Assembly (NCBI GenBank): GCA_039815185.1
Contig: JBCBZT010000015.1
Span: forward strand, 32,001 to 96,000
Origin: Cyanobacteria bacterium P01_A01_bin.123
Lineage (GTDB): Bacteria; Cyanobacteriota; Cyanobacteriia; Phormidesmidales; Phormidesmidaceae
Direction: 5' to 3'
Length of the DNA: 64,000 nt
The position numbers were made by a program, and so were the translations under genes. The notes below the pieces were generated by a model. The model saw only the letters and a program-made list of their open reading frames with translations. It made no database searches and was not told where the DNA came from. This document shows, piece after piece, positions 8,017 to 53,021 of this stretch (position 1 is the stretch's first letter; each line of letters opens with the position of its first letter).

Positions 8017-8870
8017 TGGAACCTGTTTCAAATCCCCCGGCTCAATTTCACAATGCTGCCCCTGGTGACCCTCAGTTGCGTCAACTAGGGGCTGACCAGT
8101 CCCCGGCTCACGCTGAACAATTACCCAAAGACTCAGAACTGGCGGTTAAAATTCGAGGACTGAACTACTACTTTGGCCGGGGCGATTTGCGTAAGCAAGT
8201 GCTCTACAATATCGATCTCGATTTGCCCCGAGGACAGATCGTGATTATGACCGGGCCTTCAGGGTCGGGAAAAACGACGCTTTTAACCTTGATTGGGGCG
8301 CTACGCTCTGCTCGGGAGGGCAGCCTTGAGGTATTAAGCCGAGAAATTATTGGTTTGGCCAAGCACCAGCTGGTGGAAGTCCGGCGCAATATTGGGTTTA
8401 TCTTTCAAGCTCACAATTTATTTGAATCTCTGACAGCGGTTCAAAATGTTGAGATGGCAGTGGAGCTAATTGGACAGTTTAAAGATAAGCGCACGCAGGC
8501 GACTGCTATCCTCAACCAAATTGGGTTGAGCGATCGCGTCAAGTACAAACCAGAAGCACTTTCTGGGGGGCAAAAACAGCGGGTTGCCATTGCTCGGGCT
8601 CTTGTTAATCAGCCCCAGTTGATTTTGGCTGACGAACCCACCGCCGCGCTCGACAAAAAATCAGGCCGAGACGTGGTCACGTTGATGCAAACCTTGGCTA
8701 GGGAACAAAACCGCACTATCTTAATGGTGACCCACGACAACCGCATTTTGGACGTGGCCCATCGCATCATAAACCTGGTCGATGGCCACCTCGAATCCGA
8801 TGAAAATCTAGCCCAGTTTGTGCAAACTCACGACCCCAAAACCCTCGATCGTCGAATGTTTATTCTATAA
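8016..8870 (+). CDS. devA: DevA-family ABC ATPase
   Basis: Walker A GPSGSGKTT, signature LSGGQKQR, Walker B LILADEPT, VTHDNRI. Confidence 0.93.
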   Translation: MEPVSNPPAQFHNAAPGDPQLRQLGADQSPAHAEQLPKDSELAVKIRGLNYYFGRGDLRKQVLYNIDLDLPRGQIVIMTGPSGSGKTTLLTLIGALRSAREGSLEVLSREIIGLAKHQLVEVRRNIGFIFQAHNLFESLTAVQNVEMAVELIGQFKDKRTQATAILNQIGLSDRVKYKPEALSGGQKQRVAIARALVNQPQLILADEPTAALDKKSGRDVVTLMQTLAREQNRTILMVTHDNRILDVAHRIINLVDGHLESDENLAQFVQTHDPKTLDRRMFIL

Positions 8871-8874
8871 AGCA

Positions 8875-9354
8875 ATGCCCATTGATTTTGCTAACCCGGT
8901 TCAAGCCACGACTTACACCAAAGTCGCCGACTACCTCAATGGGTCGTCCCTATTTAAACCATCGTTGCGGACCTACGACGGCCAGCCCAAATTTGATATC
9001 CTCTACGGTTCAACTTTAGTGGAAATTGAGGTATTGCCCTGGGAAGTTCATCCCTGGGAAGAAGCTGACCTAGCCACGGTTAGAGCCACAAGCTGCGTCA
9101 CCATTGGTAGCCACATCAATGCCGATTTGATGCATTTTTTGCTCACTGAAAATCGACGTATGCGCTTTGGGGCCTTTAATTTAGACGACGCCGGACAAGT
9201 TCTTTTTGCTGAAAGTGTCCTGGGGGGCGACAGTATGGATCTAATGGAACTGCAAACCTGCATTTTGTCAGTTGTCACCATTGCCGATACCTACGATGAC
9301 CTGATCGCCGAGAAGTTTGGTGGAAAGCGGGCAGTAGATTTGCTATCCGCGTAG
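8875..9354 (+). CDS. YbjN/T3SS-chaperone-like domain protein
   Basis: Acidic ~159 aa; LLTEN..MRFGAF and IADTYDDLIAEKFGG patterns; ATG at 8875. Confidence 0.7.
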   Translation: MPIDFANPVQATTYTKVADYLNGSSLFKPSLRTYDGQPKFDILYGSTLVEIEVLPWEVHPWEEADLATVRATSCVTIGSHINADLMHFLLTENRRMRFGAFNLDDAGQVLFAESVLGGDSMDLMELQTCILSVVTIADTYDDLIAEKFGGKRAVDLLSA

Positions 9355-10258
9355 GGGGAAGCGCTGCTAGCCTATATCGGCTTGGCAATGCTGATTCGGA
9401 TGCGCTGGGGTATTTGCTAAGCGGCGTTGAAGATAGCTATATTTGCGTGGTGCTCATATGATCATCAGCAAATTCTCAGAACAAACCGCTAGTATTGATC
9501 GTCATAAACCCCATCCGATTGGCAAACTTGAGTTTTGAGCTGAGGGAAGAACCCTTGAGCTTGTGGCTCGGGAGGGCTACGGATCTAGATGTGGCGGGTT
9601 TAGTTGTTAGTCATCAGCTGTGGCTTAGGGTCTAGACCAATCGCGTTCAAACCGCAATTGACCAACCGGCTCGGGTCGAAATGGCTGAATTAAGCTGTGC
9701 TGTGAGAGAACGTTCGGTTTTCTGGTTAGGGTTAACCGCCCATATTCACTTTGTTGAGTATGGGATTATATGTTCAAATGACTTTTCCAGAAACTGACAT
9801 TGACACTCGAATTAAGAGGAACTTGGAACCATTGCCCTTTACGGCATCGATAGATTGCCATATTATGGAGAAACAAACTCATAACGATTTCGACTTTGAG
9901 ATTTTAGCGTTTGGATGTGCCAGATAGTTTTATCTGTATGCTTAACTAGCCAAATAAACGCCTTGAGTTTTAGGAACACCAAGCAAGTGCTGTGTGAGGT
10001 CTGTTGACATCGGTGTTTCAAACTTAGTTAGCAATCTATGCTCTGCAACCCTGATCCGGTTCTGTTTAAGACTGACACTTTCCTATGATCTAAGCTAACA
10101 GACCTGGACTCGGATAAGGATTTAGATGGTCTTATTCAGGTAGTGCTTGCTTAGCAGCACTTAAACGTTCTGCCATTGATCACCGCAATGGTTGGTTCCC
10201 AATTTCTTTGCATTCGCTCAAGACACAGTCAGCATTTCCAGCGGAGGCGATTGATTCC

Positions 10259-11248
10259 ATGCCTAAAACCACCACCAAGTCTAAAAGTAAAACGACCAAG
10301 CCCCTCTACACTACAGATACTGTTCGCACCTACCTCCATGAGATTGGTCGCGTACCGCTGTTGACCCATGAGGAAGAAATTGTCCTGGGCAAGCAAGTTC
10401 AGCAGTTAATGGCTTTGCTAGCTCAGAAGGAAGCGCTCCAAGAAATCCTTGATCGCGTCCCAACTGATGTTGAGTGGGCGGAGGCGATGACCCTGAGTGA
10501 ATCAGCCCTGAAGCAGCAACTGCTCCAGGGGGAGAAGGCTAAGCGCAAGATGATCGAGGCTAATTTGCGTTTAGTCGTCGCGATCGCAAAGAAGTATCAA
10601 AAGCGCAATCTAGAATTCCTTGACCTGATTCAAGAAGGCACCTTGGGACTAGAGCGTGGCGTTGAAAAGTTTGACCCCACTAAAGGTTATAAGTTTTCAA
10701 CCTACGCCTACTGGTGGATTCGGCAGGCGATTACCCGCGCGATCGCTCAGCAAGCGCGAACCATCCGACTGCCCATTCACATCACCGAAAAGCTCAACAA
10801 AATTAAGCGCGTTCAGCGTGAACTTTCACAGCAGTTAGGGCGTAGTCCTACCCCAGGTGAAATTGGCGCAGCTTTGGAGCTGGAGCCTAAGCAAATTCGG
10901 GACTACTTGCTGTTGGCTCGTCAGCCCATCTCGTTAGATGTGCGCATTGGCGATAACCAAGACACCGAACTGCAAGATCTGTTGGAAGACGATACTGCGT
11001 CTCCCGAAGACTTTACTGTTCAAGAGTCTCTCAGACAAGATATTCGCAATATGTTGTCTGAACTTACCCCCCAGCAGCAAGAAGTGATTCGGTTGCGGTT
11101 TGGCTTAAGCGACGGCAATGAACTTTCTTTAGCCAAGGTAGGGCAACGCATGAGCATCAGTCGGGAGCGAGTTCGTCAGCTCGAACAGCAGGCCCTCAAA
11201 CACCTGCGTCGCCGTAAAGCCAACATCAAAAGTTATCTGGCAAGCTAA
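10259..11248 (+). CDS. Group 2 RNA polymerase sigma factor (SigB/RpoD2-like)
   Basis: [40 protein letters not shown] and region 4 SRERVRQLE; lacks region 1.1. Confidence 0.93.
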
Positions 11249-31986: not shown

Positions 31987-32993
31987 GTCGCACCTACAAA
32001 GCCATTGGCATCAACCTCAAAACCCAACCGATGGGCGAGTCCGATCGATTACTCACGATTTTGACCCAAGAGCAGGGCTTAATTCGCGCGATCGCCCCCG
32101 GTGCCCGCAAACATAAATCAAGCCTGTCAGGACGTAGTGGCCTATTTGTGATCAATGATTTGCTGATTGCCAAAGGCAAATCCCTCGGTAAGGTCACCCA
32201 GGCCGAAACCCGCCAGTCTTTTCCTAAACTGAGCAGTGATTTAGCTAAGCTCACTGCCAGTCAGTATTTAGCCGAGTTAGTGCTGTGCCAAGCCCTCAGC
32301 GATCAATCCCAGACCGATCTATTTAACTTGCTAATAGAGCATCTAGAACGGTTAGAGCGGGCGTCTAAAGCATCGGTATTAGCCTGTCTGGCCCATGCCA
32401 CCTTTCATTTGCTGGCGCTGGCTGGGGTTGCGCCCCAGGTTCATCAGTGCTGTGTATCCCGCAGTCCACTGGTGCCCGATTTGAGCAATCCTGACTGGCG
32501 CGTGGGCTTTAGCCTGGTGGCAGGGGGGACAGTACACCTAGCTGAACTGACTCGGCTGCATGCCTCTAACTCCGTTACAAACTCCGTCACAAAGGTTGAA
32601 GCAGCATCGGCAGCTGACCAACCCATGTCATCAGGTTCTTCCCCTTTGACAGCCAATACAGCCCCTACTTCAGGAAAATCCTCAAAAGAGCTTGCCGTCC
32701 ACGACGACACAGCCCGTTATGATACTGGAGGGGGATTTGTCGCCCGAGGCAGATCTGCCTCAGCACAGGTGTTTCAGTTGACTGCAACAGAGTTGGTGCT
32801 CTTGCAGCAGTTAAATCAGGCTGACCTAATTGCCGCTCTGCCAATTACGGAGCCATCCCCAGCCCAGATTCAGATTGGTCCCCATCGCTACTGGTATCGG
32901 ATAGAACGAATCCTCCGCCAATATGCTCAATATCAGTTTGATCGACCTATTCGGTCAGCGGCGCTAATTGATACTTGTTTTTCGCCCCCTTAG
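31983..32993 (+). CDS. recO: DNA repair protein RecO
   Basis: [36 protein letters not shown] and QYLAE; overlaps the deoC stop (ATGA). Confidence 0.92.
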
Positions 32994-45238: not shown

Positions 45239-45910
45239 CTATTTCCCCACCAGTTTGCCAGCCCCTGGCAACTCAGGGCGTAAATGCATCGGTAAGTGAA
45301 TGCAGTCATTGAATACTTCTACAAAGGGGCCGTAGCTGGCCATTGAGATTACGGTGAGGCCAGCGACAGGCATGGCCAGGCGATCGCGGTAACGCCCTGT
45401 ATCCACACCCAACAGTGTGCAGAGCATAATCCGCAATGTCGCTTTGTGGGACACAATCAGGACATTACCGGTCGGGTAACGATTTTCAATTTCGTCTAGG
45501 ACTGCTGAACTGCGGTGGGCTACCCGCACCCCCTTTTCACCAGCTGTGGGTGCATTCCACCCCGGATCGGCTAGCCAGCGCATGTAGTCGTCGTGGAATC
45601 GTTGATCCACGGTCGCAGGGGATAACCCTTCCCATTGACCAAAATCCAGTTCTCTGAGTCCGTCACGCTTTTGGATGTCTAGTCCCGATGTTGAAGCCAG
45701 GGATTCATAGAGGGGCTTGACCGTTGCGATCGCATGGCTAAGCGGGCTACAAAAAATTGCTGTCCAAGGCAATTGGTAATAGGCTTTGGCAAAGTGATCA
45801 GCCATTCCCTGTCCCCGAGTAGTCAGGGGCACCCCATCATGGCTGCAATAACAGCCTGTCCGGGAATATTCTGTTTCTCCGTTGCGCAACAGGTAAAGCT
45901 TTAAGCTCAT
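45239..45910 (-). CDS. Histidine phosphatase-family protein with a degenerate active site
   Basis: RNG replaces RHG; SPLSHA replaces SPL.RA; ELDFGQWEG and VSHKAT retained. Confidence 0.85.
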   Translation of the reverse strand: MSLKLYLLRNGETEYSRTGCYCSHDGVPLTTRGQGMADHFAKAYYQLPWTAIFCSPLSHAIATVKPLYESLASTSGLDIQKRDGLRELDFGQWEGLSPATVDQRFHDDYMRWLADPGWNAPTAGEKGVRVAHRSSAVLDEIENRYPTGNVLIVSHKATLRIMLCTLLGVDTGRYRDRLAMPVAGLTVISMASYGPFVEVFNDCIHLPMHLRPELPGAGKLVGK

Positions 45911-45923
45911 GGTGATGACTCAC

Positions 45924-46568
45924 TCAAGTACTCGGTAAGGCTCGCAATCGTTCCCCCAAGTGTGATCGATCGGCAATCCGGTGAAATCGTGGCCCCCGAG
46001 ATGCCAACTCTACAATGCTGACGGCGGCAACGGGCATATCCATGCGATCGCGATAGCGCCCCACATCAATGCCCAGCAGCAAAGACAACATAATGCGGAT
46101 AGTGGCCTTGTGGGACACAATCAACACGTTGCCATCGTCATAGGTTTGCTCGATGGTGTCGAGCACCTGCGACGCCCGTCGAGCAATATCCACCGCCCTT
46201 TCACCCCCAGTTGGTGCAGACCAGGCCGGATCAGTCAGCCAGCTTAAATAATCATCGTGAAATTGGATATCTACGACATCCGGGGGTAACCCTTCCCACT
46301 GGCCATACATGACCTCGCGCAACCCTGCTTGCAGCTGCATGTCCAATCCCACTTGTTGACAAAAGGGGGTGGCCGTTTCAATCGCCCGTCGCAGCGGACT
46401 CACATAGGCTGCTCGCCAAGGTAAATGGGCATAGGCATCCGCAAAAGCCTCTGACATTTGATGCCCCTCTACCGTTAAACCCGGATCATTTTCTGGGGTG
46501 CCGCAATAGCCCCCGGTCAAGCTGTAGGCCGTTTGACCATGGCGCAAAAAATAAAGAACGGCTCCCAT
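45924..46568 (-). CDS. Histidine phosphatase-family protein
   Basis: LRHGQT, SPLRRA, EVMYGQWEG and VSHKAT. Confidence 0.92.
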   Translation of the reverse strand: MGAVLYFLRHGQTAYSLTGGYCGTPENDPGLTVEGHQMSEAFADAYAHLPWRAAYVSPLRRAIETATPFCQQVGLDMQLQAGLREVMYGQWEGLPPDVVDIQFHDDYLSWLTDPAWSAPTGGERAVDIARRASQVLDTIEQTYDDGNVLIVSHKATIRIMLSLLLGIDVGRYRDRMDMPVAAVSIVELASRGPRFHRIADRSHLGERLRALPST

Positions 46569-48204: not shown

Positions 48205-49545
48205 ATGTCTCCAGTTATTCCCCTCCAGTTTGTCAACGCCGAAGATCTCAAACAACAACCCGATACTGTACGCCTTTGGGCCAGCACTGCTGGCTTCAAG
48301 GCTGACCCCGGCAGCCACTGCCTGGTGCCTGATAGTCAAGGTGCAATCGCAACTGTATTAGTTGGCACTCCTGCCGCATTGGATACTTGGACGTTAGGGA
48401 AACTAGCCCAAAGCTTGCCGCCCAATCGTTATACCTTAAGCGTAGATCTCGATGGCGAAACCGCTACCAAGTTGTGCCTCGGCTGGCAATTGGGGCAGTA
48501 TCGATTCACTAAGTATAAAAATGGCTCAAGTGCGTTACCAGAATTGGTATTTCCGGCTGGGGTAGACGATGCTTACGTTCAAGCCTCAGTAACCGCTACT
48601 ACCCTTGTCCGCGATCTGATCAATACGCCCGTCAATGACATGGGGCCAGACCAGCTCGAAGCTGCTGCCCAAACCCTGGCCCAGCAGTACCAAGCCGCTA
48701 TTCAGGTCACTGTGGACGAGGCACTCCTAGCCCAAAACTACCCGATGATTCACGCCGTAGGTCGCGCCAATGACCAACCCCCGCGCTTAATCGACCTGCT
48801 TTGGGGTGACCCCAATCACCCCAAAGTTACCCTAGTCGGCAAGGGGGTGTGCTTCGACACGGGCGGACTCAATATTAAGAACAGCAGCGGTATGAAGCTG
48901 ATGAAAAAAGATATGGGCGGAGCCGCTCAGGTCTTAGGCTTAGCCAGCTTAATCATGCAGATGCAGCTACCTGTACAGCTACGCGTGTTGATTCCCGCTG
49001 TAGAGAACAGCATTACGAATAATGCCATACGTCCCTCAGATATATTGCCGTCGCGTAAAGGCGTCACCATAGAAATTGGCAACACTGACGCCGAAGGCCG
49101 CTTGGTGTTAGCTGATGCCCTATGGGAAGCCGTGAGCGACCCCCCTGATCTGCTGATTGACTGTGCGACCCTGACAGGTGCTGCCCGTGTTGCCCTAGGC
49201 GCTGAACTCCCCGCCTTCTTCTGCAACCATGGGCCAACGGCTGAAGCCCTTAAAGCGGTTGGAGAGGCTTGCGACGATCCATTATGGCAACTGCCACTGC
49301 ACGCCCCTTATCGAGAAATGCTCTCAAGCAAAATCGCCGATCTCAATAATATTTCCAATACCTCCTACGGTGGCTCGATTACGGCAGCACTGTTCTTACA
49401 GGAATTTGTCAAACCAGACGTCCCCTGGATTCACATCGACTTCATGGCCTGGAACCTGCGTGCCCTGCCCGGACGTCCCGAAGGCGGTGATGCTATGGGT
49501 ATGCGGGCATTGTTTGCATTGATTCGAGATCAAGTAGTGGGTTAG
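48205..49545 (+). CDS. M17 leucyl aminopeptidase
   Basis: GKGVCFDTGG, MKKDMGG, NTDAEGRL and ATLTGA. Confidence 0.95.
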   Translation: MSPVIPLQFVNAEDLKQQPDTVRLWASTAGFKADPGSHCLVPDSQGAIATVLVGTPAALDTWTLGKLAQSLPPNRYTLSVDLDGETATKLCLGWQLGQYRFTKYKNGSSALPELVFPAGVDDAYVQASVTATTLVRDLINTPVNDMGPDQLEAAAQTLAQQYQAAIQVTVDEALLAQNYPMIHAVGRANDQPPRLIDLLWGDPNHPKVTLVGKGVCFDTGGLNIKNSSGMKLMKKDMGGAAQVLGLASLIMQMQLPVQLRVLIPAVENSITNNAIRPSDILPSRKGVTIEIGNTDAEGRLVLADALWEAVSDPPDLLIDCATLTGAARVALGAELPAFFCNHGPTAEALKAVGEACDDPLWQLPLHAPYREMLSSKIADLNNISNTSYGGSITAALFLQEFVKPDVPWIHIDFMAWNLRALPGRPEGGDAMGMRALFALIRDQVVG

Positions 49546-51665
49546 GACTCCTGCCCAAACCACTTTTGGTAAATTTCGTCATACTGTTCGGTTTCAAAAA
49601 GTTTTAGCAGGCTGGCGTTAATTACTTCTCGATAGTCGCTATCTTGGGCCATGGCAATGCCGTAGCTAAGTTCTTTGTGAAACACAGGGCCAACGACTTT
49701 GACTTTACCTTGACCGTCGTGGGCGGCATAGTGCTGAAGCACAGGGGCATCGTAGACTACAGCATCAAATTGGTTATCAATTAGCCCTTGAAACACTTCT
49801 TCTTGGGTCGCATAGTCGCGAAAAAACAGTCCGGGTTGGCGGGCTAAGTAGTCGGCAGCGGCGCTGTTGGCGATCGTGGCGATGCGTTTACCGGGTAAAT
49901 CTCCTGGGCCGCGAATGTTGCCTTGGAGTTCTTGCACGGTGAAGGAGCTGGCAATGGTCGCCGTGAAGTAAGCGAGCACAAAATAACCAAAAAACATCCA
50001 TAACAATCCAAAAACGCGGCCCAATGCCCGTTGGGGTACCTTGTCGCCATAGCCCACGGTGGTTACGGTTACCGCAGCCCACCAAAAGGCTTCCCAAATA
50101 CCGGATAGGTAACGGCTAGGAAACTGGGCATTGTGGCGATGTTCCGACAGCCATAAAATATGGGCCACCCCCAGCAAAATGAAGACTAAAATGCCGATCC
50201 CGTAATACAATCTGGGCGATCGCAGGACAGCAATCACCACACCAAAGACTTCGGTTAAGGCCGTATCACCCTGGCTAGAGACCAAAACCTGTAACCCCGA
50301 CTCAAAGAACGCATGGGAAAAATCTAGGGATTCTTCTCCATAGGAGGTAATGCCAATCCCTGCCACGGCTAGGTCGGCGGCCCCCCGCTCGACGTCGTCG
50401 AGCATTTTGGCCAGGGAGTTAACCCCCACAAGCTCATAGGTGATGTTGAGATCGGCCGCGATCGCTTTCCAGAGGTCAATACTAAAACCGCTGTAATCTT
50501 GACTTTGATAAGTGACAAAGGGCTCAAACTGCTTCGTCACAACCCTCAGGGTCTGACCTTCATAGGGGGAAGTTGTGGGTTCAGGGTCCGGAACTGCCGC
50601 AGACGAGGGAGGGCTGGTCTCGGCAATTTCCTGAGCAATCGCCAACCAAGGATCAACGCGATCGCGGTTAGCCGCAATCCACTGACGGGCATGGTCGCGA
50701 ATATCAGCTTTAGAATCTTCTCCTGAGAGCATTTTGGCGTTTTGGCTGGTGATCTCCGCTAGGGGAATTTCAATCTGTTCCAATAGCGCTCGCACTGCCG
50801 GGTTAGTCTGCAGGAAGGCACGATTAGCTACGGCTCGAATGTCGTTGGGCGGAAACCCCATGGCGCAGGGATCAGCCACACAACCCGGCACCCCTGGCAC
50901 GACCGTTTCACTCTCTAAAGATTTTTGAGCCACAGGCAGACTCGGAAAAGGCACCTCCAACCACACCACATCTTGCCCCGGCACCAGCTGACTAATAGTC
51001 CAGTTGGGTGTCCAGGAATAAAACAGCATGGATTCCCCCTGGCGATAGCGATCAATGGCGTTTTTTAGCATGGGGGTATAGTCGCCGTGGAGATGCTCAA
51101 CCGTTTCGGTTAACCCGTAGGCGTCCAAATGCTGATCGATGATCTCGGCGCAGCTCCAGTCCTGGTTGCAGCCGATTAGATCTGCCTTGCGATCGCCGTC
51201 ACGGTCAAACTGCTTGGCAATATCGGGATCAGCCAAATCCTCTAAATTGCGGATGTTGAACTGATCTGCTGTGGTCTTGTCGATTAAGTATCCCTGGAGT
51301 GCTCCCCCAGGAACCTCAAACCCCACCACCTCGACCTGATCCGCAATGTCATCGCGGTTGAGAAAGCTGTTATGAGATGGAAACCAGCCGTTGGCCCACA
51401 GATCGACCTCGCCTTCAGCAACAGCAGTGTAAAACGCTTCATTGTCTAAGGTGCGTGGTTCACTCACGCTGTAGCCCAACTCTTGCAGTAAGGCCCGAAA
51501 GATCTCTGTTTGAAACCAGCCCGTATCCCAAGTGGGTCTGGCAATGTTGATCGGGGATGCTGCCTTTACCTCAGATACTGCTGATAGGCTCAATAGCCAA
51601 GCCAGAGCCAAGCCCAACAACACCCATCCCAAAGCTTTGAATCGAGATCCCATGATCAACCACAT
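49542..51665 (-). CDS. Fusion of a ProX-type betaine-binding domain and a GluR0-like ligand-gated K+ channel
   Basis: Signal peptide; ProX motifs NGWFPSH, GCNQDWSC and YSWTPNW; Pro linker; S1 (FEPF, GFSIDLW); M1; pore TTVGYGD; M2 AYFTATIAS; S2 (DAPVL, YGIA, KWF). Confidence 0.9.
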   Translation of the reverse strand: MWLIMGSRFKALGWVLLGLALAWLLSLSAVSEVKAASPINIARPTWDTGWFQTEIFRALLQELGYSVSEPRTLDNEAFYTAVAEGEVDLWANGWFPSHNSFLNRDDIADQVEVVGFEVPGGALQGYLIDKTTADQFNIRNLEDLADPDIAKQFDRDGDRKADLIGCNQDWSCAEIIDQHLDAYGLTETVEHLHGDYTPMLKNAIDRYRQGESMLFYSWTPNWTISQLVPGQDVVWLEVPFPSLPVAQKSLESETVVPGVPGCVADPCAMGFPPNDIRAVANRAFLQTNPAVRALLEQIEIPLAEITSQNAKMLSGEDSKADIRDHARQWIAANRDRVDPWLAIAQEIAETSPPSSAAVPDPEPTTSPYEGQTLRVVTKQFEPFVTYQSQDYSGFSIDLWKAIAADLNITYELVGVNSLAKMLDDVERGAADLAVAGIGITSYGEESLDFSHAFFESGLQVLVSSQGDTALTEVFGVVIAVLRSPRLYYGIGILVFILLGVAHILWLSEHRHNAQFPSRYLSGIWEAFWWAAVTVTTVGYGDKVPQRALGRVFGLLWMFFGYFVLAYFTATIASSFTVQELQGNIRGPGDLPGKRIATIANSAAADYLARQPGLFFRDYATQEEVFQGLIDNQFDAVVYDAPVLQHYAAHDGQGKVKVVGPVFHKELSYGIAMAQDSDYREVINASLLKLFETEQYDEIYQKWFGQES

Positions 51666-51687
51666 CCGATTTAAAAACTTGAGTTTT

Positions 51688-51792
51688 CGTAGCGCTAACT
51701 AGATTGCTGCATCCACCGAGGATCGCTAAAGGTCTTAGTCTACAAGCAATCTAGCTCGCAGTCGCGCACAAAGGTTGGTGGCGACTGCTATA
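51688..51792 (+). mobile_element. MITE-like repeat family A copy (105 bp, diverged)
   Basis: CGTAGCGCTAACTAGATTGC...GCAATCTAGCTCGCAGTCGCGCACAAAG...GCGACTGCTATA. Confidence 0.7.
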
Positions 51793-51897
51793 GCTTAAGG
51801 GAAAACGATAAATCTAGATGTCATCAAAACTATTTCACAAAAAATAAACCCCCAGAGAAATCTGGGGGCAAAACACCAACCAAGTCTAGTTCAAAAC

Positions 51898-52053
51898 TCA
51901 AATATCATTAGCATTAATCCATTCCGAAAGGGGCTCACCATCAAATGGCTGAACGCCAATATTGGGATATTCATCATCAATTGGGCTAAAAATTCGACCA
52001 AAGCCCTCTGAAAGGTATCGTGCGACGCCATCTAGCATTTCGGCAATTTTCAT
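51898..52053 (-). CDS. atpT: Small protein, probably the ATP synthase inhibitor AtpTheta (Norf1)
   Basis: 51 aa; amphipathic N-terminal helix then RIFSPIDDEYPNIGVQPFDGEP, matching my recollection of the family; GAGG RBS; terminator-like stem at about 51849-51868. Confidence 0.6.
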   Translation of the reverse strand: MKIAEMLDGVARYLSEGFGRIFSPIDDEYPNIGVQPFDGEPLSEWINANDI

Positions 52054-52487
52054 AACAGTTACCTCTTCTAGGTTGATGGAAATCAAGCGCCAAAAGCTGT
52101 CAAAAGCGATGCAAGTTTCAGAATCTTCCACAATTGGAAATCTTACCTTTCGACATCCATTGACTTCACCTAAATCCTAAGGCAATTTATCTTCTATGTT
52201 GGCTATAGCTAATATTCTTCACAGCTTAGGGGTAGCCGCAGCCTTTTTTAATGAAGAAAGATTTATTAGTTTAAATGATTATCACAGCGTAACCACGCCA
52301 TGCTTAACTCACGTTAATTCCAAAGTTATAGACGTAGTTTGAAGAGCCTATACTACAGAATAGATAACCCTACATCAATAAAGTTCCAGAGATTGTCATC
52401 ATGACTGATACAGTCTCTCCATTGGTGGTTTAGTCTGAGCTTGCCAAGCATAACCTTAGCTGTCATAAAAGGCGCTGGAGTTTTTCT

Positions 52488-53021
52488 ATGTTTAAAAAAA
52501 TATTGGTTGCTGTCGATGATTCCGAAATTACCCCCGATTTAGTCAGTCGCGCGATCGCATTAGCCAAAGCGACCCATGCCCATCTCAAATTTTTAACCGT
52601 ACTGTATCCGATCAGTGTCGGCTACCCAAACCCGATTGATCTGACTGTAGACGGTATACCCTCAACGGTCTCTACCGAAGCCTTTCAGCGCTACCTGGAC
52701 ACCTGGAAGCAAGCTCAAGCTGAATCCTTAAATCGGCTAGTCAATTGGGTTAAACAAGCTGAGACCGCCGGGGTTGAAGCCAGTTATGAACAAGAATTGG
52801 GAGAGCCGAGTCGGCTCATCTGTGACATTGCCGCCTATTGGCAAGCTGATGTTATTTTGATCGGGCGACGGGGTCGGGTTGGCATTAGCGAATTGCTGCT
52901 GGGCAGCGTCAGCAACGCCGTCATGCACCATGCCTCCTGCTCTGTGTTGACTATCCAAGGACACACCAGCCGCTCATCTCCCTCGACAGTCACTGCCGAA
53001 CAAACTGCAACTGTTGAGTGA
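52488..53021 (+). CDS. Universal stress protein
   Basis: MFKKILVAVD and GRRGRVGISELLLGSVSNAVMHHASCSVL. Confidence 0.93.
   Translation: MFKKILVAVDDSEITPDLVSRAIALAKATHAHLKFLTVLYPISVGYPNPIDLTVDGIPSTVSTEAFQRYLDTWKQAQAESLNRLVNWVKQAETAGVEASYEQELGEPSRLICDIAAYWQADVILIGRRGRVGISELLLGSVSNAVMHHASCSVLTIQGHTSRSSPSTVTAEQTATVE

Follow-up and report, generated by a model that had tools for sequence, protein, structure and literature searches.

What does a betaine-binding domain do in front of a potassium channel? The question is raised by a gene on the minus strand of contig JBCBZT010000015.1 of Cyanobacteria bacterium P01_A01_bin.123 (assembly GCA_039815185.1). Positions 32,001 to 96,000 of this contig, a stretch of 64,000 nucleotides here called the window, were analysed, and all positions are given in window numbering. 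The gene (49542–51665) joins a ProX-type binding domain to a channel of the GluR0 type, a prokaryotic ionotropic glutamate receptor (iGluR). An earlier note, made from the DNA letters, had read the product as a candidate osmolyte-gated channel that couples periplasmic betaine sensing to K+ flux. The answer favoured here, with slightly better than even confidence, is a GluR0-type K+ channel under allosteric control by periplasmic betaine. New in this analysis are the patch on which the outer domain is predicted to dock, a controlled count of the linkage to BCCT genes and a branch of the family that has lost the amino-acid-binding Arg.

Domain architecture of the fusion protein

The reading frame of 707 residues is unbroken and encodes a signal peptide, a ProX-type domain and the channel elements S1-M1-TVGYG-M2-S2 in this order (Table 1). 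The chain ends directly after S2. Pfam matches are OpuAC at residues 38–331 (E 8e-51), SBP_bac_3 at 375–705 and Ion_trans_2 at 520–575. The PF04069 score is 173.5 (cut-off 21.2) and the NCBIfam ProX equivalog NF008334 is matched with 366 bits (cut-off 215). Among solved structures, the closest by sequence are ProX of E. coli (1R9L, E 2e-68) and, for the S1S2 part, the core of Nostoc GluR0 (2PYY, E 3e-42). The AlphaFold2 model (115-row alignment, pLDDT 85.8, pTM 0.71) consists of signal helix, ProX domain, disordered linker, S1, M1, pore helix, M2 and S2, and has no M4. The coordinates and motifs of the earlier note, from the signal peptide and the Pro-rich linker to the TVGYGD filter, are right. 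Its remark that no proV or proW adjoins the gene also holds.

Met5 is likelier to be the start than the first ATG, because the database record has 703 residues and a dispersed repeat overlies the first ATG. Both this record and the Atlas record begin at residue 5. Databases name the fusion proteins as transporter binding proteins, and such names hide these channel fusions.

Reality and distribution of the fusion

An assembly artefact, which would have undone the reading of the earlier note, is ruled out by a contig of another study that spans the stretch and by recurrence of the fusion across phyla. Single contigs of the sequence runs X2 and X5, the latter from the other study, cover the entire stretch; X3 covers the entire gene and X8 only does so in pieces. 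The X5 contig differs from the stretch in 90 letters and in one in-frame insertion of 9 nt in the linker. Third codon positions account for 31 of 36 in-gene strain differences (hand count over the 36 displayed rows, with 67 rows undisplayed), and Gly443 is kept across strains despite a change from GGA to GGG. The sequence runs containing at least half of the words of the stretch are marine metagenomes from a single study, and one of them may be the source of this DNA; X2 comes from the same study as this run. RNA data are not listed among the runs holding the stretch.

A protein search gave 759 matches among 8000 scored candidates, and the best 120 of the 759 all have OpuAC and channel domains. 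In a set of 67 genome loci, the fusion turns up in cyanobacteria, in Desulfobacterales and further deltaproteobacteria, in Anaerolineae and in Acidimicrobiales. OpuAC precedes the channel in all 12 proteins longer than 600 residues among the 150 best 50%-identity representatives of the channel part, one of them having two copies. The Atlas gave only two clusters, both of the same fusion and named ProX, and no structure. A search for longer multi-domain forms returned one weak insect iGluR match only, which is weak evidence.

In the family to which the window belongs, the fusion is present in 13 of 140 genomes, all from two genera (2/2 and 11/12 genomes). A FastTree tree of 203 non-redundant channel parts places all 65 fused rows within one starred branch of 78 rows; the 13 unfused rows inside this branch are fragments or losses. 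Judged from the tree, a single origin of the fusion is likely. The GC content of the gene (0.51–0.54) resembles that of its flanks and gives no sign of recent transfer.

Several relatives depart from the common layout. In the divergent fused proteins P0260 and P0286 the TVGYG filter is replaced by REGWG, and P0286 also has two tandem ProX domains. From this exchange they are possibly non-K+-selective members. In P0241, P0147 and P0144 the ProX domain is partial and eroded, the inner site is canonical and the docking patch is missing; by these features they look like a reversion to ordinary GluR0. In Chloroflexaceae, chains with two or three tandem copies of the ProX subtype of the fusion are found, and the subtype is twice fused to SBP_bac_3 without a channel (L040:2-2218, L046:5713-9135, L067:1427-4966, L045:3167-5380 and 8023-10362). 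Split or frameshifted fusions are present at L020:2832-4364, L068:5857-8012 and L066:5920-8080. At L068 the ProX and channel parts are two adjoining open reading frames with the docking residues kept in both, either a natural split or a sequencing error.

An apparently intact ProX-type outer domain

The outer domain is about 40% identical to E. coli ProX. In a structure search it aligns with 1R9L with a Z score of 36 and an r.m.s. deviation of 2.3 Å over 306 residues. The ligand contacts of E. coli ProX listed in Table 2 of PMC10087775 (W65, H69, W140, G141, C142 and W188) correspond to W94, H98, W170, S171, C172 and W218. The Trp cage, the carboxylate-binding His and the Cys backbone contact are all present, and the three Trp motifs and the CxxxWxC pair (C166-x3-W170-x-C172) noticed earlier align with E. 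coli ProX as proposed.

W46, W94, H98, W170, C166, C172 and W218 are found in 119 of 120 aligned rows, the remaining row being a fragment with a gap. Position 171 is Gly in 71, Ala in 44 and Ser in three of the 120 rows, and Ser in this protein. The fourth Trp, W46, occupies the 'WD' position of OpuAC and is absent from E. coli ProX. A second Cys pair is formed by C262 and C267. The best guess for the ligand, from the composition of this pocket, is glycine betaine or proline betaine.

A cognate ProVW or OpuA permease neither adjoins the gene nor is recognizable in its own genome (G000) as a close ProU-type proW, where the best match is only 27–29% identical. A close ProU-type proW is absent from G000, G012 and G021 (best E 6e-16, 4e-22 and 8e-10), and G005 and G016 have a separate ProU-type proW with 58% identity. 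About 22 kb away on the same contig, beyond the window, is a compatible-solute ABC operon of four genes, which encode an ATPase, two permeases and a binding protein (Table 1). We take it to be of the OpuC/OsmF-like type. Its binding protein differs in type, and the ProX domain gives no tblastn match to it. For betaine synthesis or catabolism, the genome of the gene gave no match to a GSMT motif or an MttB query, which is a weak test.

A fusion-specific patch on S1 is the predicted docking site

Structure prediction places the ProX domain on a dedicated patch of S1. Two-chain predictions of residues 36–348 with residues 369–707 scored 0.69, 0.69 and 0.71, and the best control 0.00. The score mark used is reached by 116 of 157 solved pairs and by 2 of 215 mismatched ones, counts that apply only roughly here because a custom alignment was used. 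Contact agreement between the runs is at least 93% and the partner pLDDT is at least 87. On S1 the interface comprises 17 positions (379, 386–389, 413–420, 422–423, 427 and 429); on ProX it comprises 45, 47–48, 50, 72, 156, 192–202 and 312–322. K420-D47 and D423-T72 are among the most confident contact pairs. No solved ProX-iGluR complex was found in searches of the PDB.

On the S1 side this surface is fusion-specific, and comparison of the sequences suggests that it arose with the fusion. In the counts over 172 fused and 222 unfused rows, rows with fewer than 300 aligned residues and partial fusions are omitted, and some of the 222 unfused rows are fragments of fusions. K420 is present in 170 of the 172 fused and 19 of the 222 unfused rows. 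A comparison that preceded the docking result had found K420, D423 and R427 invariant in 162 fused and variable in 77 unfused proteins. When 333 channel positions are ranked by fusion specificity, eight of the top ten fall among the 17 interface positions, whether all rows are taken or only the non-redundant ones (64 fused and 138 unfused), kin and helix-neighbour positions in this ranking being non-independent. On the ProX side, P198 occurs in 109 of 120 fused rows and in none of 22 free-standing ProX domains (hand count, two split fusions omitted).

None of the 26 linker positions is at least 90% conserved, and the spacing between W340 and R374 varies from 29 to 45 residues (115 rows). The linker is unlikely to carry a signal, because it is unconserved and variable in length.

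Fusions outside the cyanobacteria are linked to BCCT genes

A BCCT gene is found within 5 kb of 29 of 34 non-cyanobacterial fusions; the same three groups furnish 57 unfused GluR0 genes, none of them with a BCCT gene that close. Two duplicate loci were dropped from the 34 and two split loci were counted as fused. Four of the five misses have less than 1.3 kb of upstream sequence. With flanks of at least 4 kb on both sides the count is 22 of 23, and it is 0 of 42 for unfused controls with full flanks. A metagenome control, with no BCCT at 12 usable, partly redundant unfused loci, was kept out of the main count. At the level of whole genomes, a BCCT is present in 11 of the 13 fusion-bearing ones and in 39 of the 127 others, but the 13 come from two genera and are not counted as support.

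The gene order varies by phylum: the BCCT gene is upstream with a free OpuAC between, divergent, or downstream. Because the order differs among phyla, the link has survived rearrangement, although many loci are close kin. The TM3 GxGxG motif and the TM4 aromatic motif are present in 29 of the 31 linked BCCT loci read, the aromatic residues of TM4 being those described in bioRxiv 2020.05.29.123752.

The deltaproteobacterial cassette of BCCT, free OpuAC and fusion is conserved and contains no ABC permease (L012-L016, L019, L020, L022, L033, L068, L071 and L072, e.g. L015:4214-8999; L012 is cut before the BCCT gene). It suggests a binding protein that works with the BCCT or with the channel. Downstream of the only BCCT gene of the genome containing the window (L005, G000:C94:52295-56758) lies a gene for an FAD-dependent oxidoreductase of the DAO family, and a divergent gene upstream encodes a Rieske protein; these neighbours hint at betaine or sarcosine catabolism.

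Other recurrent neighbours in the non-cyanobacterial phyla are free OpuAC, gcvT/gcvP, an MttB-family methyltransferase and putA. Going by gene content, these neighbours point to betaine as a nutrient as much as an osmolyte. The betaine link of the earlier proposal is strengthened by the docking patch and the BCCT linkage; its term 'osmolyte-gated' is not borne out, nutrient sensing being equally open.

The inner domain and pore

The S1S2 part matches 2PYY best among solved structures (Z score 25.2). The filter is highly conserved: T536, V537 and Y539 are each present in 170 and G538 and G540 in all of the 172 fused proteins. The model of S1S2 is nearer to open than to closed GlnBP (r.m.s. deviation 2.0 vs 4.3 Å), a predicted conformation that is no evidence of state.

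In the amino-acid-binding site, position 443 within ITSYG is Gly (codon GGA); it is Arg in 2PYY, GlnBP and GluA2. A second ligand contact is lost at Gly438, which is Ser in 2PYY and Thr in GlnBP and GluA2. We take positions 438 and 443 to be T480 and R485 of GluA2. In S2, Ala602 stands where unfused GluR0s mostly have Thr. Asp639 is kept in 167 of 172 fused proteins.

The loss of the Arg, inferred earlier from ITSYG, is real in this gene and is not a trait of the family. Position 443 is Arg in 142, Gly in 24 and Ala in six of the 172 fused rows, and Arg in 211 of the 222 unfused rows. The check in homologues thus turned out against a general loss. With near-duplicates removed, residues other than Arg are confined to near (cyanobacterial) proteins, this gene included (23 of 44 vs 0 of 91 distant fused proteins). 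Going by its distribution, the exchange to Gly at 438 is spread more widely through the family: this position is Gly in 115, Ser in 42 and Ala in ten of the fused rows, and Thr in 101, Ser in 93 and Gly in 13 of the unfused rows.

In the 23 Arg-less proteins, T377, F380, E381, G436, T440, S601, Y638, D639 and Y668 are invariant and position 443 is Gly (18) or Ala (5). This branch does not look like decay, because only Gly and Ala occur at 443 and nine other pocket and core residues, D639 among them, are invariant. A compensating basic residue in S2 was considered and rejected: R621 is present in only 11 of the 23 proteins and absent from this one.

Proposed mechanism

From these observations we infer the following course of events. 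An inverted-topology K+ channel, presumably tetrameric, would have gained a second, outer periplasmic sensor. The Trp box of ProX would capture glycine betaine (or proline betaine). The mouth of its cleft would rest on the S1 surface that evolved with the fusion (413–429, 379 and 386), held mainly through the first lobe (45–50, 72 and 312–322) and touched by the second (192–202). Closure of ProX on its ligand may alter the contact with S1 and shift the S1S2 layer. This shift would pull the M1 and M2 linkers and change the open probability, with the linker between ProX and S1 as a tether only. Most family members retain Arg and Asp in the inner S1S2 domain, which in them may still accept a second ligand. 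In the branch of this gene, with the Thr, Arg and S2 Thr contacts lost, the inner site would probably be mainly a transducer and betaine the main trigger.

Activation by betaine is only somewhat favoured over inhibition; it would be simpler, because ordinary amino acids are unlikely ligands of an Arg-less inner site. Which way K+ flows would depend on the membrane potential, and Synechocystis GluR0 is described as a passive influx path (PMC13099474). The role may be a rapid response of K+ or membrane potential to betaine outside the cell, in coordination with uptake by the BCCT.

A bolder form is doubtful, though worth stating: a natural family of two-layer K+ channels in which ProX was acquired independently of the eukaryotic amino-terminal domain (ATD) and gates through the S1 patch, with betaine as sole agonist and the amino-acid site as a pure transducer in the cyanobacterial branch. 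If true, it would provide a betaine-gated channel from prokaryotes and show, in a living example, how a clamshell added at the N terminus captures the glutamate-receptor gate.

A number of observations weigh against control of the channel by betaine. The predicted contacts are on S1 only and none is on S2, so this one-subunit model offers no direct lever to the gate. According to the model, the path from docked ProX to the gate must run through the tetramer, because no S2 contact is named. The docking model was built on a custom alignment and shares data with the conservation signal, from which it is not wholly independent. Free-standing ProX proteins beside proVW also have the motif around W46 and D47, and on sequence comparison clear fusion specificity is confined to the S1 side. 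The patch is missing from three fused relatives (P0240, P0241 and P0242), in which the inner site is canonical; in P0241, much of the ProX domain is lost as well. For the most part the fused proteins form a single clade, so that the counts lack independence and hypergeometric P values overstate. Two relatives (P0260 and P0286) have a non-K+ filter. No BCCT linkage is seen in 22 cyanobacterial fusions (eight with full flanks); the neighbours of the present gene are an M17 peptidase, a small open reading frame and a Usp gene, and the BCCT of its genome is on another contig. Finally, four Trp at these spacings fit the trimethylamine N-oxide (TMAO) binder TmoX as well (PMC10087775, Table 2).

Alternative readings

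The last point leads to the alternative that survives best, in which docking and allostery are the same and the ligand is another methylated onium compound (TMAO, dimethylsulfoniopropionate, choline, carnitine or dimethylglycine), with nutrient or host sensing in place of osmotic control. Such a ligand is unlikely, despite several supporting features. The spacing of W46/W94/W170/W218 matches that of W55/W102/W177/W222 in TmoX (PMC10087775, Table 2), and W46 falls on the 'WD' Trp of OpuAC, which has no counterpart in E. coli ProX. Linked genes include a cyclodeaminase besides gcvT/gcvP, the MttB-family methyltransferase and putA, and several hosts are, by their record titles, sediment anaerobes or animal symbionts. 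Against this, the linked BCCTs have Gly at the TM3 position that we take to be Asp in choline transporters, and betaine-bound ProX (1R9L) is by far the best match in both sequence and structure. Furthermore, H98 is the carboxylate-binding His of ProX, which is Phe in TmoX (PMC10087775).

Somewhat less probable again is a ProX domain that is a tethered binding protein serving a BCCT or an ABC transporter, with the channel as membrane anchor that gates independently of betaine. The free OpuAC between BCCT and fusion in deltaproteobacteria, unaccompanied by an ABC permease, hints at cooperation of this kind. In Chloroflexaceae the same ProX subtype stands free or in tandem beside proVW, and at two loci (L020 and L068) the domains are in separate reading frames. 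Yet the S1 patch is predicted to occupy the ProX mouth, and the mouth of a substrate-binding protein is the face needed by a permease. The lack of a close ProU-type proW in G000, G012 and G021 also speaks against this role, as does the persistence of the fusion in cyanobacteria without BCCT linkage. BCCTs, moreover, are single-component transporters (bioRxiv 2020.05.29.123752).

Improbable, too, is a hand-over in which ProX scavenges betaine and passes it to an S1S2 pocket retuned for N-methylated glycine, gating being ordinary closure of the ligand-binding domain. The exchange of Thr for Gly at 438 would give room for methyl groups, Arg would hold the carboxylate and Asp639 the cation. The frequency of Gly438 in fused proteins and the retention of Arg443 and Asp639 in most of them agree with this. 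The docking patch includes 418 and 379, which from the alignment with GlnBP presumably flank the pocket mouth. However, this protein and 22 other near relatives have no Arg to hold the betaine carboxylate, ProX has no predicted contact with S2, and a new aromatic cage is not evident in S1S2.

That the protein of this cyanobacterial branch is a relic, decaying or no longer ligand-gated, is very improbable: three canonical contacts are replaced (Gly438, Gly443 and Ala602), BCCT linkage is absent in cyanobacteria and one cyanobacterial relative is frameshifted (L066), but the restriction of position 443 to Gly or Ala beside an otherwise invariant pocket, the bias of strain differences to third codon positions with Gly443 surviving a codon change, and the presence of the gene in nearly all genomes of its two genera argue against it.

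Other features of the window

The gene stands alone between a convergent M17 peptidase gene and a small open reading frame with a terminator-like site, followed by a Usp gene. Directly upstream of Met5, a dispersed repeat of about 75 nt, the 3' part of which has about 45 matches in the genome, is split by a second repeat of about 100 nt with well over 100 matches. The genome contains 222 further blastn matches, about 45 of them to 51653–51690 and most others to 51690–51795. Loose contig ends fall at the repeat positions in four runs. The repeats overlie the first ATG and the likely promoter region and are not part of the mechanism. By their position these nested miniature elements may supply or disturb a promoter. 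A promoter and terminator scan gave one promoter-like and two terminator-like sites, no more than in shuffled sequence, and a search of 49000–53000 against Rfam gave nothing meaningful (a single match, E 0.86). The window also contains the rbcLXS genes, which, like the nearest named relatives, indicate a cyanobacterial host.

Table 1. Features of the ProX-GluR0 fusion gene and of its surroundings (window numbering unless another locus is given)
Feature	Position	Strand	Residues	Remarks
Whole gene, ProX-GluR0 fusion	49542..51665	-	707	703 residues if the start is Met5 (51653)
Signal peptide	51561..51653	-	5–35	Basic n-region, hydrophobic helix, V-K-A-type cleavage site, read by eye; helix 5–28 in model
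ProX-type quaternary-amine binding domain	50631..51560	-	36–345	Pfam, NCBIfam and structure match
Flexible linker	50553..50630	-	346–371	Pro/Ser/Thr-rich; pLDDT <50 at 353–366
S1 half of iGluR-type ligand-binding domain	50268..50552	-	372–466	With Gly438 and Gly443
Fusion-specific docking patch on S1	50379..50429	-	413–429 (+379, 386–389)	Predicted ProX contact surface; N416, A419, K420, D423, R427, A429
Transmembrane helix M1	50142..50216	-	484–508	Model helix; Lig_chan and Ion_trans matches
Pore helix and K+ selectivity filter TTVGYGD	50043..50111	-	519–541	Ion_trans_2 E 5e-15
TVGYGD	50060-50043	-	536–541	
Gate helix M2 (transmembrane)	49920..50027	-	547–582	Aligns with iGluR SYTANLAAF segment
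S2 half of ligand-binding domain	49551..49919	-	583–705	S601, Y638, D639 and Y668 kept; Ala602
Two nested dispersed repeats	51653..51820	.		blastn; directly upstream of Met5
Terminator-like hairpin	51869-51848			After the small open reading frame
Small open reading frame	51898-52131	-	77	Upstream, same strand; 77 residues from GTG, 51 from inner ATG
Two tandem histidine-phosphatase-like reading frames	45239-46568	-		Assigned by sequence; at the catalytic His position RHG in the upstream and RNG in the downstream frame
Compatible-solute ABC operon	L073:8881-12819 = G000:C19 104.9-108.8 kb			Outside the window

Comparison with known systems

The fusion is apparently undescribed in print: the full-text literature searched, mostly outside subscription journals, contains no description of a ProX-GluR0 fusion. 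The text of PMC2950845, in the parts consulted, does not mention betaine or OpuAC; its supplementary lists of 100 sequences were outside the search and could bear on priority.

With GluR0 (Synechocystis Slr1257, 1II5; Nostoc punctiforme core, 2PYY; 'Group 1' of PMC2950845) the protein shares S1-M1-P(TVGYG)-M2-S2, a signal peptide and the lack of M4. S1 and S2 flank two transmembrane helices and a pore loop with TVGYG, as in Group 1. GluR0 has no N-terminal domain (bioRxiv 2021.01.27.428399; PMC11479355), whereas a ProX domain of 310 residues is present here. A fusion-specific S1 patch is added, and Gly438, Gly443 and Ala602 take the places of Ser or Thr, Arg and Thr, with Asp639 kept among the recognition residues. 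Going by these features the protein is a GluR0 channel in pore and topology, but a variant rather than a plain member, because an N-terminal domain is present and the amino-acid motif is altered.

The ProX of E. coli ProU (1R9L/1R9Q; related to OpuAC, ChoX and TmoX) has the same fold and the same contacts of three Trp, His and Cys. In the fusion, unlike E. coli ProX, the domain is joined to a channel, has the extra W46 and a second Cys pair, carries Ser for G141 and comes without a cognate proW in the genome.

The nematode betaine-gated channels have a pentameric Cys-loop fold. Betaine is their ligand, but they are animal proteins and unrelated to the fusion (PMC9860315, PMC8747062). Closer in principle is an engineered EhuB-GluR0 chimera, in which an osmolyte-binding protein gates the GluR0 pore (bioRxiv 2021.01.27.428399). 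This construct is artificial and EhuB replaces S1S2, whereas in the natural fusion the binding protein is added outside S1S2. GluR0 has been implicated in osmoadaptation (PMC13099474), and the fusion could be a direct molecular link between the K+ and the compatible-solute arms of this response.

The eukaryotic iGluRs with an ATD, especially the NMDA receptors, likewise have two stacked clamshells over an inverted K+-channel-like pore. The two-layer layout pointed out earlier holds as an analogy, but the outer domain is ProX (Z score 36) and unrelated to the ATD; Pfam gives no match to ANF_receptor or the ATD family in the fusion protein. The outer domain here is a separate acquisition from the eukaryotic ATD, because it is ProX-like and not of the ATD family. 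The fusion further differs from these receptors in its K+ pore signature and the lack of M4. The docking patch lies just before and on the helix aligned with 'MVGELVYG' of GluA2, which we take to be the loop-2 neighbourhood of S1 in NMDA receptors. In these receptors the N-terminal domain couples to an S1 loop (GluN1 loop 2, residues 489–496) and tunes gating (PMC10871359). Reviews describe prokaryotic iGluRs as lacking an ATD, which arose later in eukaryotes (PMC11479355; bioRxiv 2021.01.27.428399). The present proteins are a bacterial family whose outer clamshell has another origin and is apparently connected to S1. Their natural variants, which keep or lose the inner Arg and the docking patch, make up a ready set in which to study the capture of an iGluR gate by a second layer of sensors.

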